Origin: an uncultured Bacilli bacterium
Lineage (GTDB): Bacteria; Bacillota_I; Bacilli_A; RF39; UBA660
Direction of reading: 5' to 3'
Assembly (NCBI GenBank): GCA_934130375.1
Contig: CAKOXW010000001.1
Coordinates: forward strand, 136,067 to 200,066
Length of the DNA stretch: 64,000 nucleotides
The notes beneath the pieces are model-generated. The model was given only the letters and a program-made list of their open reading frames with translations, searched no databases and was not told the origin of the DNA. Shown here piece after piece: positions 16,160-50,898 of the stretch. The position numbers and the translations under genes are program-made. The stretch's first letter is position 1. Every line of letters begins with the position of its first letter.

Positions 16160-16768
16160 ATGATTTATAAACTTGCTAATAGTTTTTCGTATAATTCAAG
16201 AGAGGATTTGTATCAAGTTGGAATACTTGGGTTAATTAATGCATATAGAAAATATGATAGTAGTCTTGGTATAAAGTTTTCTACTTATGCTTATCCATTT
16301 ATACTTGGTGAGATGAAAAAGTATATAAGAGAGAATAATGGTATAAAGATTAGTAGAGATATTATATATTTAAGTAAAAGATTAGATAAATTAATAGAAA
16401 TATTAAAGAATAAAACTCATAGAAATCCAACTACTAGTGAACTAGCAAGTATATTAGAAGTTTCTGAATGGAAAATAGTTGAAGCACTTGGAATTAGAAA
16501 TTGTATAAAGAGCCTAGATGAATATGTAAACGATGATGAAAATATATCTTATATTGATACCATCAAGGTGAGTGATGGTATTGATGAAATAGAATTTAAT
16601 GATATGTTAAGTACATTAAGTGATACTGAAAGAGAAATAATAAGTGAGAAATATTTTTATGATAAATCTCAATCTGAGATTGCTAGTAATTTAGGATATT
16701 CACAAGCTAAAGTTTCAAGGGAAGAGAAAAAGATATTAGTAAAATTAAAGAATTATTACAAAGTATAG
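16160..16768 (+). CDS. Sigma-70 family sigma factor of the SigF/SigG/SigB group; coding region probably begins upstream of the first ATG
   Basis: DLYQVGILGL, KFSTYAYPFILGEMKKYIRENNGIKISR and C-terminal ...QAKVSREEKKIL match regions 2-4 of SigF-type factors. The in-frame upstream codons (DDNIVDELSIQIENNSK) continue the alignment, and AAAGGAGA lies at 16102-16109. Confidence 0.75.
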   Translation: MIYKLANSFSYNSREDLYQVGILGLINAYRKYDSSLGIKFSTYAYPFILGEMKKYIRENNGIKISRDIIYLSKRLDKLIEILKNKTHRNPTTSELASILEVSEWKIVEALGIRNCIKSLDEYVNDDENISYIDTIKVSDGIDEIEFNDMLSTLSDTEREIISEKYFYDKSQSEIASNLGYSQAKVSREEKKILVKLKNYYKV

Positions 16769-17313: not shown

Positions 17314-18633
17314 ATGAAGAAGAAAAATGGGTTTACTTTGGTTGAATTACTAGCAGTAATAGTAATACTCGCAATTATCTTAGTTATTGCGGTACCTAAA
17401 ATTACTGACACAATAAAAAATTCAAAGATTGCATCATTTGAGAGTAGTGCGAAAACTATTGCTGCGCAAGCAGAAAAGAAGAAAATGGAGAAAGAAATAC
17501 TAGAAGATACTGGAAGTATTAGTTGTAGTGACATTGTTAAATTAAATGATACTGATTATGGTAATTGTAGTATAACTTTCGATGGTAATACTGCTAAGGT
17601 TAGTTTAGTAGGAAAGGGTAAGTTTGAAGGACTATCAGTAATAAATGGTACTAAAGATAATGCAACTGCTGGTGAAGTTAAAATGCCTGAATATGGTAAA
17701 GGAACAACATTTATAAAGGCTTTATATGATAGTGATATATTAAGAAAAACAAATGGGCTTAAGAAAGACAATACAAGTGATGCAAATATAAGGTATGAAG
17801 GAGCAAATCCAAATAACTATGTATCATTTAATGATGAGCTATGGAGAATAATAGGAGTATTTGGTGATAACATTAAGTTAGTTAGAAGTGAACAATTAGG
17901 TAAATTATCGTGGGATAGTTCGGATTATTCAGTTAATATTGGTGATGGAGTAAATGAGTGGAGCCAAGCCGATTTAAAAGAATATTTAAATACAATGTAT
18001 TATGGCGGAACTAGTGTAACATGTTATGGCGGAAGAAGAAATGTAACTACGACATGTCCAAGTGGTAACATAAATTCATCTGCAAAGTCAATGATAAATA
18101 ATTATACTTGGAATACAGGTGCAATAAATTATGATGATACAACAATTGTAAATCAAGAAACATTTGCACTAAATACTGTACCATTTTATAATGCTGAAAG
18201 AGGTTCAGTAACTGGTAAAATATGCACAAGTGGAGATTTCTGTAATGACACAATTGAAAGAAAAACAACATGGCCGGGTTATGTAGCATTACCATATACA
18301 ACTGATTGGGCATATGCAAGTAGTGAGACTGCATGTGCAACTAATATGAAAGATGGTTTTGTTGCTGATACCTTGAATGTTGATAATATGACATGTAAGA
18401 AAAATAACTGGATGCATCATGGTAGTACAGTGAATGAAGGTATGTGGATGCTTTCGCCTGGTGCTTATTCCGTCTATGCTTACTACGTGTGGAGTGTCTC
18501 TGGTTCTGGAAATGTCTACAAAGCTTTTGCGGATATTGCACTTCCCGTTTTCCCATCCGTATATCTAAATACTGAAGTCAAAATAACAAGTGGAAGTGGT
18601 TCAAGTAGTGACCCATATATACTTGGTGTATAG
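17314..18633 (+). CDS. Modular type IV pilin-like protein 1 (prepilin N-terminus + ~110-aa pilin module + ~330-aa Cys/Trp-rich C-terminal module)
   Basis: MKKKNGFTLVELLAVIVILAIIL is a class III signal peptide with G|FTLVE. N-terminal ~110 aa are about 60% identical to the two paralogues at 31967 and 49825. RBS AGAAAGGGTG. Confidence 0.7.
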   Translation: MKKKNGFTLVELLAVIVILAIILVIAVPKITDTIKNSKIASFESSAKTIAAQAEKKKMEKEILEDTGSISCSDIVKLNDTDYGNCSITFDGNTAKVSLVGKGKFEGLSVINGTKDNATAGEVKMPEYGKGTTFIKALYDSDILRKTNGLKKDNTSDANIRYEGANPNNYVSFNDELWRIIGVFGDNIKLVRSEQLGKLSWDSSDYSVNIGDGVNEWSQADLKEYLNTMYYGGTSVTCYGGRRNVTTTCPSGNINSSAKSMINNYTWNTGAINYDDTTIVNQETFALNTVPFYNAERGSVTGKICTSGDFCNDTIERKTTWPGYVALPYTTDWAYASSETACATNMKDGFVADTLNVDNMTCKKNNWMHHGSTVNEGMWMLSPGAYSVYAYYVWSVSGSGNVYKAFADIALPVFPSVYLNTEVKITSGSGSSSDPYILGV

Positions 18634-28704: not shown

Positions 28705-31245
28705 ATGAAGTTGTGTGAGGTTGATAAAAGTAAAATATCTCCAATGATGTTACAATATATTGATATTAAAGAAAAAAATATGGATGTTATTTTATTTTTT
28801 AGATTAGGGGATTTTTATGAAATGTTTTTTGAGGATGCTTATATTGCATCAAAAGAACTAGAACTTACTTTAACTGGTAAAAATGCAGGTTTAGATGAAA
28901 GAATTCCTATGTGTGGTATTCCTTACCATGCAGCGTCAATTTATCTTGAGAAATTGGTTGAAAAAGGGTATAAGGTTGCGATATGTGAACAGGTTGAAGA
29001 CCCTAAGACTGCCAAGGGTGTTGTTAAAAGAGAAGTAATGCAAATAGTATCTTCTGGAACAGTTATGAATAGTGATGCGCTTGATGAGAAGAGTAATAAT
29101 TATATTGGAAATGTGCTTGATTTTAATAGTTCGTATGTAATATGTTATACCGATTTATCTACTGGTGAAGTAAATGTGAAAATGATTAATCATGATACGG
29201 ATACTTTAATTAATACTATATTATCTTTAGGGTTAAATGAAATCGTGTTTAAATCAGATTTTAATAAGTACGTAGTTGATACTCTAAGGAATAAGTGTAG
29301 ATTAAATGTAAGTATTAGTGATTATGTATGTGATACAGATGAATATAAATATATATATGACTTTGTATTAGATGAAAGATATATTATATGTATTAATCAT
29401 TTATTATCTTATTTAATAGATACTCAGAAAAGAAGTTTAACTCATTTGCAAAGAGTTAATATTATTGAAAATATTTATTTAAATATAGATGTTAATAGTA
29501 TTCGTAATTTAGAATTAGTTGAATCTTTAAGATTAAAAAGTAGAAATTATTCATTATTATGGTTACTTGATAAGACTAAGACTGCAATGGGTTCAAGGAT
29601 GCTTAAGAATTGGATTTTAAATCCTTTAACTAATATCGAAGAAATTAATAAAAGGTATGATATTATTAGTACTTTAGAAACTGAATTTATATTAAAAGAA
29701 GAGTTAAAGAATTATTTAAATGAAGTTTATGACTTAGAAAGATTATGTGGTAGAATTTCTTATGGTAATACTAATGCGAGAGATTTAATACAACTTAAGA
29801 ATTCTTTAAAAGTTCTTCCTGATATTAATAAAATATTAACTGATTTAAAGTTTTATAAAAACATTGAGACTTTAGAAGATTTATATAGTTTACTTGATAA
29901 AAGTATTGATGATGATGCTCCTATAACTATTAAAGAAGGCGGAATAATAAAAAGAGGTTATAATTTAGAACTTGATAGTTTAAAAGATAATAGTAAATCT
30001 GGAAAAGATTTTGTTGTAAATATGGAGAGTGAAGAGAGAGAAAGAACAGGTATTAAGAATTTAAAGGTTGGGTATAATAAAATATTTGGTTATTATATAG
30101 AAGTATCTAAGGGGAATATACCTTTAATTAAAGATGAATATAATTATGAGAGAAAACAAACTTTAGCAAATTGTGAAAGATATGTTACTCCTTTATTAAA
30201 AGAAAAAGAAGCAATGATATTAGGTGCGGAAGAGAAGATTATTAATCTTGAATACAATTTGTTTATTGAAATTAGAGATATAGTTAAGAATTATATTAGT
30301 AGAATACAAGTAATTGCTAAGACTATAGCAGAGATAGATGTTTTGCAGTCTTTAGCGTGTGTTGCTGAAGAAAATAATTATGTAAGACCAGTTATTAGTG
30401 ATAAAAGAATTATAGATATTAAAGGTAGTAGACATCCAGTTGTTGAGAAAGTATTAAATACTGAATATGTAGATAATGATATTTATATGGATGAAAAAAC
30501 TAATATTTTAATGATTACTGGACCAAATATGGCTGGTAAATCTACTTATGAAAGAGAACTTGTTATTACATCTATAATGGCTCAAATGGGTTCTTTTGTG
30601 CCTGCTAAGAGTTGTATTATTCCTATATTTGATAAAGTATTTACTCGTATAGGAGCATCAGATGATCTTGTGTCAGGCGATAGTACATTTATGGTTGAAA
30701 TGAAAGAAGCAAATATAGCATTATTAAACGCTACTAAAAATAGTTTAATAATATTTGATGAATTAGGAAGGGGTACAGCAACTTATGATGGATTATCAAT
30801 CGCACAATCAATAATTGAATATATTCATGATAATATTGGATGTAAAACACTATTTTCAACTCACTATCATGAACTTACTAAATTAGATAAACACTTTAGT
30901 GGTATTAAAAATGTACATGTTGCAATAAAAGAAGAAAATGGTAATATTACATTTATGCATAAAGTAAAAGATGGACCTGTTGATAAGAGTTATGGTATAC
31001 ATGTTGCTAAACTTGCTAATTTACCAAGTAAAGTAATAAATAGGGCTAATGAAATATTAAATACTTATGAAAATAAAAAGGAAGTAGTATTTAGTGAACA
31101 ATTATCAATACCTATAGAAACTATAGAAAAAGATAATATAATTGAAGATAAAATTAAGAATATAGATATACTTAATACAACACCACTTGATGCACTTAAT
31201 TTTATTTATGAATTAAAAAAAGAAATTGATAAAAAAAATAATTGA
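28705..31245 (+). CDS. mutS: DNA mismatch repair protein MutS
   Basis: TPMMLQYIDIKE...FFRLGDFYEMF mismatch-binding domain, Walker A GPNMAGKST, FDELGRGT, STHYHEL. Confidence 0.95.
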   Translation: MKLCEVDKSKISPMMLQYIDIKEKNMDVILFFRLGDFYEMFFEDAYIASKELELTLTGKNAGLDERIPMCGIPYHAASIYLEKLVEKGYKVAICEQVEDPKTAKGVVKREVMQIVSSGTVMNSDALDEKSNNYIGNVLDFNSSYVICYTDLSTGEVNVKMINHDTDTLINTILSLGLNEIVFKSDFNKYVVDTLRNKCRLNVSISDYVCDTDEYKYIYDFVLDERYIICINHLLSYLIDTQKRSLTHLQRVNIIENIYLNIDVNSIRNLELVESLRLKSRNYSLLWLLDKTKTAMGSRMLKNWILNPLTNIEEINKRYDIISTLETEFILKEELKNYLNEVYDLERLCGRISYGNTNARDLIQLKNSLKVLPDINKILTDLKFYKNIETLEDLYSLLDKSIDDDAPITIKEGGIIKRGYNLELDSLKDNSKSGKDFVVNMESEERERTGIKNLKVGYNKIFGYYIEVSKGNIPLIKDEYNYERKQTLANCERYVTPLLKEKEAMILGAEEKIINLEYNLFIEIRDIVKNYISRIQVIAKTIAEIDVLQSLACVAEENNYVRPVISDKRIIDIKGSRHPVVEKVLNTEYVDNDIYMDEKTNILMITGPNMAGKSTYERELVITSIMAQMGSFVPAKSCIIPIFDKVFTRIGASDDLVSGDSTFMVEMKEANIALLNATKNSLIIFDELGRGTATYDGLSIAQSIIEYIHDNIGCKTLFSTHYHELTKLDKHFSGIKNVHVAIKEENGNITFMHKVKDGPVDKSYGIHVAKLANLPSKVINRANEILNTYENKKEVVFSEQLSIPIETIEKDNIIEDKIKNIDILNTTPLDALNFIYELKKEIDKKNN

Positions 31246-31292: not shown

Positions 31293-31697
31293 ATGGCAGA
31301 TATTAATAGAAGTGAATTAAGAAAAATTATTATGACTGCACTTTATCAAATAAGTGTTTATAAATCAAGTAAGATTAAATATGATACTAATGAAGTTATT
31401 AAAGAATTATTAGAAGTTAAAAATGATTTTGTAAATGAAATAGTATTCGGTGTTTTAGAGCATGAAGATGAATTAGTAGATATTGCTAATAAGTATTTAA
31501 AAGATTGGACTATAGATAGATTAGGAAAAACTGACCAAGCAATACTTAAGATAGGTTTATATGAATTATTATATACTGATACACCTGATATAGTATGTAT
31601 AAATGAAGCCTTAGAGTTAGCAAGCGAGTACTCTGATGATAAAGTAAAAAGTATGATTAATGCAGTACTAGATAACGTAATGAAAAATAAAGATTAA
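31293..31697 (+). CDS. nusB: Transcription antitermination factor NusB
   Basis: RSELRKIIMTALYQ, DRLGKTDQAILKIGLYELLY. RBS GTGAGGTG. Confidence 0.85.
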   Translation: MADINRSELRKIIMTALYQISVYKSSKIKYDTNEVIKELLEVKNDFVNEIVFGVLEHEDELVDIANKYLKDWTIDRLGKTDQAILKIGLYELLYTDTPDIVCINEALELASEYSDDKVKSMINAVLDNVMKNKD

Positions 31698-31716
31698 TTT
31701 CTTTATTTTTTTTATA

Positions 31717-32288
31717 ATATGTATTCTTTGACTTAAGTAGTTTATATTATATATTTATAAATTTATATGTTAAAGATTATAAGTTTTATATTATTTTGAA
31801 TACAAGTAACATCCCCTAATAATTAGTTAAAAAGTGGTTGTTTTGATATAAAATGTTAAAACTTTTGTAAATTTTCGTCAAAAATAGACCTAAAAAACGC
31901 CCTCGCCCATTGCCAAATGGGGGGGGGTGTATAGTATAATAACCTTGTATAATAGAGGAGGAAATTATGAAGAAAAAGAAGGGTTTTACTTTAGTAGAAT
32001 TATTAGCAGTAATAGTTATTTTGGCAGTTATACTAATTATTGCAATGCCAAAAATAAGTGATGTAATTAAGAATTCTAAGGAAGCATCATTAGAAACAAC
32101 TGCAAAATTAATAGCAAGTCAGGCAGAAAAGAAATATACTGAAAATCAAGTATTAGATGGTTCAACTACAATAAAATGTAGTGATGTTGCTAAGATAAGT
32201 GATACTGATTATGAAAGTTGTAATATTACTTTTGATAGTAAAGGTAATGCTAAAGTAACAATAGTAGGTAAGGGTAAGTTTGAAGGTT
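31717..32288 (+). repeat. Cassette B: ~570 bp (recurrent 3' motif + leader + promoter + first ~107 codons of pilin-like gene 2), near-identical to 49547-50146
   Basis: Aligned by eye: shared leader ...ttatattattttgaatacaagtaacatcc...gatataaaatgttaaaa...tttgtaaattttcgtcaaaaatag..cgcc..cgcccattgccaaatggggggggg...aggaggaaat and nearly identical N-terminal coding. Confidence 0.7.
31919..31927 (+). repeat. G9 homopolymer between the TTGCCA (31910-31915) and TATAAT (31935-31940) hexamers
   Basis: Counted directly. Spacer is 19 nt. Confidence 0.8.
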
Positions 32289-32875
32289 TACAAGTAGTAG
32301 ATGGAACTAAAGATAGTGCAAAAGCAAGCGCTAAGAAAGAAATTGTTGAAACTGCTGCTAAGTATTTTAGTTATGAAGAAGTGGAAGGCGGTATGTCAAT
32401 AACAGGTTATAATATTGCTGGAGGAACTGATGTAGTAATACCATCACAAATAGATGGTAAGACAGTTGTTGCTATTGGAGATTTGGCATTTACAACAAGA
32501 GGTATTATACCAACACTTACTGCTTATAATAATGATTATAAAGTAAGTTTATTAAGTTATAATTCTAATAATAATTATGTGGTAAAACCGCTTGTAACAG
32601 ATCTTAAAGGTTTAGGAATAACTTCGGTAGTGATACCTAATACAGTAACAAGCATAGGTAATAATGCATTTGCTGATAATAAGTTAACTAATATTACAAT
32701 ACCATCAAGTGTTATTGAAATAAGTCTTGAAGCGTTTTACGGCAATCAAATAAGTTCAATTACATTTCCTGATACACCAATCACTCTTGGCTGTAGAGTA
32801 TTTGCTCGTAATCCAATTTCTGCAGATGAAACTTATAGTTTACCAAGTAATGTTACTTATGTATGTGTAAATTGA
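31967..32875 (+). CDS. Modular type IV pilin-like protein 2 (pilin module + BspA-type leucine-rich-repeat module)
   Basis: MKKKKGFTLVELLAVIVILAVIL prepilin N-terminus. C-terminal repeats ...IPNTVTSIGNNAFADNKLTNITIPSSVIEISLEAFYGN... are typical of BspA-like LRR surface proteins. RBS GGAGGA. Confidence 0.7.
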   Translation: MKKKKGFTLVELLAVIVILAVILIIAMPKISDVIKNSKEASLETTAKLIASQAEKKYTENQVLDGSTTIKCSDVAKISDTDYESCNITFDSKGNAKVTIVGKGKFEGLQVVDGTKDSAKASAKKEIVETAAKYFSYEEVEGGMSITGYNIAGGTDVVIPSQIDGKTVVAIGDLAFTTRGIIPTLTAYNNDYKVSLLSYNSNNNYVVKPLVTDLKGLGITSVVIPNTVTSIGNNAFADNKLTNITIPSSVIEISLEAFYGNQISSITFPDTPITLGCRVFARNPISADETYSLPSNVTYVCVN

Positions 32876-49542: not shown

Positions 49543-49546
49543 TTTT

Positions 49547-50146
49547 ATATGTATTCTTGGGCTTTATTAGTTTATATTACATTTATAAAAGAATTACAAA
49601 AAAGTAATTCTTTTAAACTTATATATTAAAGATTATATAGTTTTATATTATTTTGAATACAAGTAACATCCAGTTAAAAATAGCTAAAAAGTAGTTATTT
49701 GATATAAAATGTTAAAAACTTTGTAAATTTTCGTCAAAAATAGGCCTGAAAAACGCCTCCGCCCATTGCCAAATGGGGGGGGGTGTTATGCTATAATAAT
49801 TACATAAAATAGAGGAGGAAATTTATGAAGAAAAAGAAGGGTTTTACTTTAGTGGAATTATTAGCAGTAATAGTTATTTTGGCAGTTATACTAATTATTG
49901 CAATGCCAAAAATAAGTGATGTAATTAAGAATTCTAAAGAAGCATCATTAGAAACAACTGCAAAGTTAATAGCAAGTCAAGCAGAGAAGAAATATACTGA
50001 AAATCAAGTATTAGATGGTAGTAGTACAATAAAATGTAGTGATGTTGCTAAGATAAATGATGCTGACTATGAAAGTTGTAATATTACTTTTGATGATAAG
50101 GGTAATGCAAAAGTATCAATAGTAGGTAAGGGTAAGTTTGAAGGTA
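49547..50146 (+). repeat. Cassette C: ~600 bp near-identical to cassette B (31717-32288)
   Basis: See cassette B. Encoded N-termini differ at only a handful of residues over ~107 aa. Confidence 0.7.
49775..49783 (+). repeat. G9 homopolymer between TTGCCA (49766-49771) and TATAAT (49792-49797)
   Basis: Counted directly. Spacer is 20 nt. Confidence 0.8.
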
Positions 50147-50898
50147 TGGCTGTATGCAATGCTAATAAGAATAGTGCATCTATATCTAGTGATTGTTCAA
50201 CAAATGCATCTTATTTTACATATGAGGACACTACTATAGTAACTAACGTTATTGTTGAAGATGCGAATAAGTGCAAGAGTTATATTCAAACAAAGCATTT
50301 AACTGAAGAACAAGCAACAACGTTGTGTACTGAAGGTTCAATAACAATTGGTGAATCTACTGGTTCGTTAAAAGATTTAGTTGTAGTTGGTGCGATACCA
50401 TCAAGTGATTATGAGACAGTAGGATTAAGAATAGAAACAAAAGATGGTATATCAATAACTGGTTATAATATAGAAGGAGGAACTGATGTAGTAATACCAT
50501 CACAAATAGATGGCAAGACAGTTGTTGCTATTGGAGATAATACAAGTGATGGTCTAGGAATAACTTCAGTGGTAATACCAAATTCAGTGACAAGCATAGG
50601 TATGAATGCATTTAGATGGAACAAATTAACAAATGTAACAATTCCATCAAGTGTTAAAACAATAGGTCATAGTGCATTTAGAGGGAACAAATTAACAAAT
50701 GTAACAATTCCTAGTAGTGTTATTTCAATAGATTACTATGCTTTTAATAGTAATCCAAATATTGTAATTACCAATAATTCGAGTATTGAAAATACACAAG
50801 ATGTTTGGGATAAAATTTTAGGAATAGACGGGTCATGTTCTCCGAAAGTAACTATAACAAATAATATTATTGAAATAGGTGTGGGACCTAATTGCTAA
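49825..50898 (+). CDS. Modular type IV pilin-like protein 3 (pilin module + Cys-containing linker + BspA-type LRR module)
   Basis: Same prepilin N-terminus. Shares internal blocks SITGYNIEGGTDVVIPSQIDGKTVVAIGD and GLGITSVVIPNSVTSIG with protein 2 (mosaic). LRR-type repeats NKLTNVTIPSSV. Confidence 0.7.
   Translation: MKKKKGFTLVELLAVIVILAVILIIAMPKISDVIKNSKEASLETTAKLIASQAEKKYTENQVLDGSSTIKCSDVAKINDADYESCNITFDDKGNAKVSIVGKGKFEGMAVCNANKNSASISSDCSTNASYFTYEDTTIVTNVIVEDANKCKSYIQTKHLTEEQATTLCTEGSITIGESTGSLKDLVVVGAIPSSDYETVGLRIETKDGISITGYNIEGGTDVVIPSQIDGKTVVAIGDNTSDGLGITSVVIPNSVTSIGMNAFRWNKLTNVTIPSSVKTIGHSAFRGNKLTNVTIPSSVISIDYYAFNSNPNIVITNNSSIENTQDVWDKILGIDGSCSPKVTITNNIIEIGVGPNC

Follow-up and report, generated by a model that had tools for sequence, protein, structure and literature searches.

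PolyG tracts in the promoter spacers of pilin-like/leucine-rich-repeat genes of an uncultured gut Bacilli bacterium: a partly supported candidate for phase variation

The window considered here, a 64-kb (64,000-nucleotide) stretch of chromosomal DNA from an uncultured Bacilli bacterium, contains at positions 31919–31927 an uninterrupted run of nine G residues (G9) in the promoter of a type IV pilin-like gene, designated pilin-like gene 2. An earlier note on this DNA had placed the run inside the 19-nucleotide (nt) spacer between a -35-like hexamer TTGCCA and a -10 hexamer TATAAT and proposed that its length acts as a phase-variation switch; the position and the spacer length were both confirmed by reading the sequence. 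The features of this locus are the following:

31717..32290, plus strand: 5' cassette common to genes 2 and 3, with ~95% identity in alignment over ~250 nt of upstream and ~320 nt of coding sequence
31865..31887, plus strand: invariant upstream block TTGTAAATTTTCGTCAAAAATAG, at about -82 to -60, unchanged in six diverged upstream regions, with variable sequence farther upstream
31898..31929, plus strand: imperfect inverted repeat CGCCCTCGCCC-ATT-GCCA-AAT-GGGGGGGGG-TG, with a stem of 14 base pairs (bp), one G.G mismatch, and G9 as the 3' arm
31910..31915, plus strand: -35-like hexamer TTGCCA in the hairpin loop region, kept as TTGCCA, TTGTCA, or TTGACA across the family and the sister species
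31919..31927, plus strand: G9 homopolymer in the promoter spacer of gene 2, identical in the compared loci L001 and L083–L086
31935..31940, plus strand: -10 hexamer TATAAT, invariant in the family, separated from the -35 box by 19 nt and from the ATG by 26 nt
31955..31961, plus strand: ribosome-binding site GAGGAGG, the ATG of gene 2 being at 31967
31967..32875, plus strand: pilin-like gene 2 (302 amino acids), with a class III prepilin signal KKGFTLVE and a BspA-type leucine-rich-repeat (LRR) C-terminus (N_methyl 2.7e-8, LRR_5 1.3e-15)

The promoter is thus composed of TTGCCA, AAT (31916–31918), G9, TGTATAG (31928–31934), and TATAAT. The -10 context, TATAGTATAAT, is without the extended -10 TG, so that this promoter should depend on the spacing to its -35 box; an overlapping alternative -10 hexamer, TATAGT at 31930–31935, would give a spacer of 14 nt. 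The invariant block TTGTAAATTTTCGTCAAAAATAG, which lies ~60–80 nt 5' of the presumed start and includes AATTTTC, half of a CodY-box-like motif (31870–85), is possibly a regulator site; its counterpart before gene 3, at 49722–49744, is also invariant across diverged alleles.

The same arrangement recurs in front of the paralogous gene 3, as had been proposed, but not in identical form:

49754..49785, plus strand: hairpin copy of gene 3, with left arm CGCCTCCGCCC (-26.6 kcal/mol, z -2.9)
49766..49797, plus strand: core promoter of gene 3, TTGCCA at 49766–71 and TATAAT at 49792–97, with a 20-nt spacer and an extended -10 element TATGcTATAAT
49775..49783, plus strand: second G9, in the promoter spacer of gene 3, also G9 in L002, L091-95, L184, L187, and L190
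49825..50898, plus strand: pilin-like gene 3 (357 amino acids), with Pfam N_methyl and LRR_5 domains

The G9 and both hexamers are repeated here, but the spacer is 20 nt owing to one extra T (TGTTATGC), and before the -10 box stands TATGc, the extended -10 motif of Gram-positive bacteria, which gene 2 does not have. Farther upstream gene 3 contains a 26-nt AT-rich hairpin insert at 49588–49615 (AAAAGAATTAC-loop-GTAATTCTTTT), which is absent from gene 2 and the loop of which is reverse-complemented between strains (CAAAAACG in L185, CGTTTTTG in L187), that is, a hairpin-loop inversion.

Both tracts are outliers in DNA of ~26% G+C content (range 21–31%), the earlier note having set the first of them against an AT-rich genome. 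The window contains 187 runs of G3, 20 of G4, two of G5, none of G6 to G8, and two of G9; these two are the sole G or C runs longer than five and occupy the same promoter position of two paralogs. Runs of seven or more G are expected at 0.30 matches per window, and the observed count was reached in none of 100 shuffles. No C run longer than five, no A or T run of ten or more, and no dinucleotide repeat is found in the 64 kb. With two G9 and no run between G5 and G9, the tracts far exceed the background run length, as expected of a promoter-spacer contingency locus. The G9 was recovered in independent assemblies built with different assemblers, and an assembly artefact is thereby excluded.

The promoter elements that flank the tract are conserved well beyond the window. 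TTGNCA and TATAAT are kept in 13 distinct promoters of the family and in ~14 promoters of a sister group with ~62% protein identity, the -35 hexamer taking the form TTG[C/T/A]CA over both groups; in both of them TATAAT lies 25–31 nt 5' of the ATG, and the spacer between the hexamers varies in both sequence and length. Conserved hexamers around a variable spacer are, at the consensus level, the footprint expected of a real sigma-A promoter, and at that level the tract does lie between the -35 and -10 elements, with the -10 box properly placed before the ribosome-binding site and ATG. In a histogram limited to regions 5' of open reading frames (ORFs) preceded by a ribosome-binding site, the unrestricted window-wide version being too noisy in such AT-rich DNA, the best-scoring promoters of other window genes have spacers of 16–17 nt. 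The 19–20 nt of genes 2 and 3 are therefore supra-optimal and should be poor, in agreement with the previous description of the gene 2 spacer as longer than the optimum.

The length of the G run and of the spacer was compared among the family members:

gene 2 type: G9, spacer of 19 nt
gene 3: G9, spacer of 20 nt
L098: G8, spacer of 18 nt
L118: G8 and an extra T, spacer of 19 nt
L100 and L104: G5, spacer of 16 nt, extended -10
L099: interrupted run GGTGGGGGG, spacer of 19 nt
L105: interrupted run GGAGGGGG, spacer of 19 nt
L103: interrupted run GGGAGG, spacer of 17 nt
L107 (a 72% relative): G9, with a differing -10 region

Between paralogs and sub-lineages the run is thus G9, G8, G5, or interrupted, giving spacers of 16–20 nt between conserved hexamers.

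Repeats at pilin promoters were also surveyed in relatives, in a set of low-GC loci fetched with the pilin module that yielded 117 regions of 100 nt 5' of a pilin-like start. Simple repeats were present in 8 of these regions against a background of 0.7% per 100 nt (~10-fold enrichment), the cases including the G9 of L107, the G8 of L118, and the rabbit-gut and P. duerdenii repeats given below. In metagenome-assembled genomes (MAGs) of rabbit-gut Bacilli (L005, L007, L060, and L078) the spacers between TTGATA or TTGACT and TATAAT contain (TA)5-7. The number of TA units differs among the rabbit-gut paralogs, resulting in spacers of 13–18 nt; this is the repeat type of Vmm and hif in the position of G9. 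In Firmicutes bacterium CAG:449 (L058:100–145) a promoter TTGACA-AAAACCATC-G9-TATCAT with an 18-nt spacer heads an operon that includes a pilin-like gene; the promoter precedes a small membrane-protein ORF, and the pilin-like gene follows ~790 nt downstream. Another polyG promoter spacer of gut Bacilli, TTGACAC-G10-TACCTATGATAGAAT at L024:4725–4760, lies 1.7 kb from a pilin-like gene. In Peptoniphilus duerdenii ATCC BAA-1640 a G9 (L026:2987–2995) is located just 5' of a pilin gene, in the 15-nt gap that separates it from a pilC/GspF-like gene (TTTAG9AAGAAATG), where it overlaps the ribosome-binding site, and in an Elusimicrobiaceae MAG a C14 (L081:2967–2980) is just 5' of, or within the 5' end of, a pilin-like ORF; these two tracts are candidate switches of other kinds. 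That repeats of different types were gained independently at one and the same promoter position is the strongest indirect argument for selected mutable spacers in this clade.

The genes controlled by these promoters belong to a dispersed family. The product of gene 2 begins with MKKKKG/FTLVELLAVIVILAVI, in which the basic leader, G-1, F+1, E+5, and hydrophobic helix of a class III signal are all present (PF07963, E 2.7e-8), and the products of genes 2 and 3 are predicted, from their N_methyl and BspA-type LRR domains only, to be surface-exposed or host-interaction proteins. No pilus-assembly genes (prepilin peptidase, assembly ATPase or platform) were found among the scanned window ORFs. A third member of the window has the pilin module without the promoter arrangement:

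17314..18633, plus strand: pilin-like gene 1 (439 amino acids), sharing the N-terminal pilin module of genes 2 and 3 but having neither a G tract nor their upstream cassette

About 550 nt upstream of gene 1 there is a gene of the sigma-70 family (16160–16768; regions 2, 3, and 4; 202 amino acids as listed). The contig is of human-gut (Hadza) origin, and the surroundings are those of a core chromosome, with genes for NusA, IF-2, a GyrB/ParE-type topoisomerase subunit (Pfam DNA_gyraseB), MutS, NusB, and DnaE, and NusA is 82–84% identical to that of "Bacilli bacterium" MAGs and Clostridium sp. CAG:1193.

Genes 2 and 3 diverge 3' of their ~95% identical 5' cassette, and extra copies of the cassette are present in other samples, positioned after gap, plsX, and other housekeeping genes. 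In one of these (L098:945–1500) a plsX-like ORF of 181 amino acids, about half the normal length, extends without a break across the upstream region, of type B, and its G8 tract; this points either to a scaffold chimera or to a genuine insertion into plsX. Both pilin-LRR cassettes of the window (31717–32875 and 49547–50898) are polymorphic for presence or absence between strains of the same species (L087–L090, L185, L186, L188, and L189). Strains without gene 2 have ppa immediately after nusB; in those without gene 3, a histidine kinase gene is followed by a response regulator gene with only a cassette remnant between them. These latter strains keep the first ~120 nt of the upstream region of the cassette and a short remnant resembling its 3' end, and the absence of gene 3 looks less like a clean empty site than like the result of a deletion. 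DNA similarity to the cassette was not found in phage and plasmid collections, so there is no sign of its being a known mobile element.

The earlier note had missed that the G run is also the 3' arm of a conserved hairpin. G9 and the following TG pair with the pyrimidine-rich arm CGCCCTCGCCC, ATT pairs with AAT, and GCCA forms the loop, so that the -35 box lies in the loop region. The plus-strand RNA fold of the gene 2 hairpin has -25.6 kcal/mol (z -3.0); the minus-strand fold is no better than shuffles, because the U.G wobbles become A.C there. The hairpin recurs in all family members with a G run; each member has a C/T-rich arm to match its G-rich run, even the degenerate L103 (UUUUCCU/AGGGAGG), and the arm and the run are absent together in the more distant relatives L004 and L110. 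The core CCCATT-GNCA-AATGGG forms a 16-bp palindrome (CCCATTGNCAAATGGG) centred at ~-33.5, which is a plausible candidate operator. In the covariation test of the stem, which is uninformative as one arm is all G, 82.3% of cells were paired against 81.2% in column shuffles, a difference that is not significant, and RNAalifold gave no compensatory pairs.

Several known element types were compared with this structure. An intrinsic terminator is rejected on the plus strand, where the tail UGUAUAGUAU is without a U-tract and no terminator-like site is found in 31600–32100, and also on the minus strand, where a T6 tail is present but the stem is no better than shuffles. In Rfam searches a tRNA alone passed the gathering score in the whole window, and a permissive search of 31690–31990 returned nothing above 16 bits against cut-offs of 34–55. 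A MerR-type promoter shares the over-long spacer of 19–20 bp (19 nt in gene 2, 20 nt in gene 3), but here the centre of symmetry falls on the -35 box (31913/14) and not within the spacer, the spacers are unrelated between paralogs and sister species, and no MerR-family gene adjoins the cassettes. Sigma-54 promoters, the ComX cin-box, the LexA box, and the CcpA cre site did not fit on comparison by eye.

In the mechanism proposed for the tract, G9 would be a slippage-prone spacer element within a sigma-A-type promoter. The family served by this promoter encodes modular surface proteins of type IV pilin-like/LRR build, is dispersed, and varies between strains; its host is an uncultured gut Bacilli lineage that has a small genome and is related to "Clostridium sp. 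CAG:1193". The length of the run would set the distance from TTGCCA to TATAAT, a G gained or lost in replication would change the transcription of that one paralog, and each copy would in this way hold its own heritable and reversible expression state, following the contingency-locus logic of porA and of Mycoplasma vlp/Vmm. A useful slippage frequency, a dependence of expression on run length, and the identity of the length that is "on" are presumed parts of this mechanism. In favour of it are the surface-protein targets, the multiple copies, their conserved 5' and variable 3' ends, and the presence or absence of copies between strains. The comparative data indicate that G9 is the selected modal state, so that the switch, if real, is a minority-variant (bet-hedging) system. 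A low-frequency contingency switch with G9 as its modal state is the best reading, and we give it somewhat less than an even chance.

Against such a switch stands the constancy of the tract at single loci. Three distinct alleles of the gene 2 locus, which differ by 17–22 substitutions in ~260 nt and by 1–5 indel events, including T7 versus T8 in an intergenic run, all have G9; the two alleles of the gene 3 locus, 25 substitutions and 3 indels apart, both have G9; and the G5 paralog has G5 in both alleles (two samples). The flanks of the compared alleles differ by 7–9%. Same-locus length polymorphism between strains was thus not found among three gene 2, two gene 3, and two G5-paralog alleles, in assemblies that show the majority tract length only and in which minority variants are invisible. 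In the comparison of related genomes that the earlier note had called for, the run differs between paralogs (9, 8, and 5) and is invariant at every single locus. A Joint Genome Institute (JGI) metagenome scan for CGCCCATTGCCAAATGGGGG gave 0 matches, the species being essentially absent from that collection, and in a GTDB genome scan the species itself was not recovered and the best match was 69% identical. The two gene 3 alleles compared have a proportion of synonymous differences (pS) of 0.078 and a ratio of nonsynonymous to synonymous proportions (pN/pS) of 0.10, indicating purifying selection; as both have G9, the tract has persisted for a long time through considerable neutral change, owing either to selection or to gene conversion. 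The same ratio indicates that gene 3 is expressed and constrained despite its nominally poor spacer of 19–20 nt, and it may be entered both in favour of the switch and as a complication for it.

The spacing itself raises further objections. A length of 19 nt is the most common one in the family; it is also found in the two near-full-length interrupted, or "locked", runs, and at least two repeat-free spacers of the sister group, unrelated in sequence and flanked by a perfect TTGACA and TGnTATAAT, have this length as well. These sister-species promoters (L108–L122 and L132) also include spacers of 16 and 14 nt, and a partial palindrome TGTCAAcTTGACA abuts their -35 box. Over-long spacing thus appears to be a family trait, and 19 nt may be a tolerated or intended geometry, which fits a designed architecture as well as an off state. 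The polarity assumed in the earlier note (G9 off, G7 on) is therefore not secure: G9 with 19 nt may be either a low or a working state. For gene 3, the extended -10 element together with the 20-nt spacer lowers the expected dependence on -35 spacing, and its output may be insensitive to run length. Also, a full-length mutS with five MutS domains lies at 28705–31245, two genes 5' of the G9 promoter, so mismatch repair is presumably active and the slippage rate may be modest. Finally, the hairpin gives the tract an alternative reason to exist. As a whole, spacer-length phase variation is partly supported, a real outlier tract in a conserved promoter spacer standing for it and the lack of same-locus length variation against it.

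A serious rival, or an additional function, is that the G run exists chiefly as one arm, the 3' one, of the conserved hairpin or palindrome enclosing the -35 box, with a structure that constrains run length and with slippage as an accident purged by selection. Such an element could be the binding site of a dimeric regulator that occludes the -35 box, or an insulating hairpin on read-through RNA from the upstream gene, just 5' of the promoter. It would account for the invariance of G9 across diverged alleles, for the joint presence and joint loss of arm and run, and for the fact that in genes 2 and 3 the G9 is constant relative to the upstream arm, the distance to the -10 box differing by 1 nt; the plus-strand folds of both genes, at z ~-3, point in the same direction. 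On the other hand, any pyrimidine pairs with G, so that a covariation signal is lacking, the stem retains a conserved G.G mismatch, pairing is broken without compensation in L099, and a designed stem would need no homopolymer. An RNA role would in addition need upstream transcription, for which no conserved upstream promoter was seen, and the structure has no U-tract, terminator call, or Rfam match. The (TA)n and polyG repeats at the same position in relatives that have no such arm are also left unexplained by it. We consider this explanation, which is not mutually exclusive with the switch, its main rival and somewhat less likely than it. Less likely still is a static tract without any switching role, inherited within a recently duplicated, gene-converted cassette, in which the promoters are constitutively weak or activator-driven at a fixed 19–20 nt and the differences between paralogs represent slow indel divergence. 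Gene conversion between the paralogous 5' cassettes does occur, as the gene 3 locus of L187 (L187:60–357 versus 49545–49825) has promoter-proximal sequence of gene 2 type (CCCTCG arm, TGTATAG, 19-nt spacer), and with cassettes ~95% identical concerted evolution could spread G9; the modal 19 nt, present also in repeat-free sister promoters, and the absence of observed same-locus variation agree with a static tract. But G9 in 26% GC DNA is slippage-prone, and its persistence over ~8% neutral divergence is unexpected without selection; furthermore, distinct repeat types have been acquired at this promoter position by independent lineages, a MerR-like dyad centred in the spacer is lacking, and the cassette is not accompanied by any regulator gene.

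Both functions might also be joined in one element, in which the spacer would be over-long by design (19 nt), the -35 box would be held in the loop of a stem with C/T-rich and polyG arms, G9 would be the working, regulated state rather than the off state, and slippage would shift promoter geometry and stem register together; this combination is given a small probability. Such an element, a structural and a mutational switch at once, would control a combinatorial set of modular pilin-LRR adhesins in a gut commensal lineage of reduced genome, with related lineages reaching the same end by (TA)n.

If the contingency switch were real, pilin-borne LRR adhesins would be under a contingency system of Mycoplasma/Neisseria style in a human-gut Bacilli lineage that has a small genome (~1.2 Mb) and is found widely among Hadza, Nepali, and industrialised cohorts, and every paralog would be individually switchable on top of the gain and loss of cassettes between strains. 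This would offer a testable route to surface variation (evasion of immunoglobulin A or of phages, attachment to a niche) in commensals on which there is no experimental knowledge, and promoter-spacer repeat switching would be extended to type IV pilin-like genes of Firmicutes. If there is no switching, the strict conservation of G9 over ~8% neutral divergence needs explaining and points to a hairpin or operator around the -35 box.

Switching by repeats in promoter spacers is well established for the polyG of porA, for (TA)n of Haemophilus hif, and for genes of Bordetella pertussis and Mycoplasma hyorhinis (PMC3899988), as well as for Vmm of Mycoplasma mycoides (PMC2628566). The closest likeness in tract type is with Neisseria meningitidis, where porA (polyG between -35 and -10) and opc (promoter polyC) likewise have a G/C homopolymer at the promoter of a surface-protein gene (PMC3899988). 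In porA a one-nucleotide change of the tract alters transcription (PMC3899988), an effect that is predicted for the present tract; the porA tract varies in length between strains and within cultures, whereas here G9 is fixed per locus in every assembly. The present host is also of low-GC Gram-positive type, unlike that of porA, and its tract is at the same time a hairpin arm. In Haemophilus influenzae the (TA)n of hifA/hifB likewise places a pilus or fimbrial gene under the control of spacer length, with overlapping -35/-10 boxes (PMC3899988, PMC9187656), but it is a dinucleotide repeat in a bidirectional promoter of a Gram-negative chaperone-usher fimbria.

Among gut commensals, a G-tract of ~11–12 in Bifidobacterium breve controls a sortase-dependent pilus via replication slippage, its heterogeneity was shown by error-corrected sequencing, and the authors mention more G-tracts in promoter spacers (PMC9187656). 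The two cases have in common a Gram-positive human gut commensal with a G-tract at pilus genes (PMC9187656); in B. breve, however, the studied tracts are intragenic and act by frameshift, the genome is high in GC, and the pili are of the sortase kind, not type IV pilin-like. With regard to the proteins, a modular type IV pilin consists of a pilin module and an adhesive module, as in Streptococcus sanguinis PilB/PilC. The present proteins resemble these in that an N-terminal class III signal and a pilin helix precede a large additional domain, of BspA-type LRR in this case, and differ from them in having no pilus-assembly genes nearby and in forming a multi-copy, strain-variable family.

The Mycoplasma systems are comparable in family organisation. 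In the vlp family each copy has a repeat in its promoter spacer, and a conserved promoter and signal sequence are combined with divergent 3' ends. As in the present family, a spacer repeat accompanies each copy in M. hyorhinis vlp (poly-A), M. mycoides Vmm, and M. capricolum Vmc ((TA)n) (PMC3899988, PMC2628566). The likeness to vlp and Vmm includes a small-genome host of Bacilli/Mollicutes type and a multi-copy surface family with a conserved 5' region and divergent 3' ends, and in relatives of this organism (TA)n is used in just the manner of Vmm. The present proteins are of prepilin type with LRR rather than lipoproteins, the repeat is a polyG in an AT-rich genome, and the copies are dispersed singly among housekeeping genes and not clustered. 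In summary, the case fails in same-locus polymorphism and shares four features with the known systems, namely, the tract, the place where it lies, a surface protein as target, and the organisation as a multi-copy family. Thus, the class of simple-repeat promoter switches is already known, and what is probably new is a member of it in an unstudied lineage with an unusual target, the modular pilin-LRR genes.

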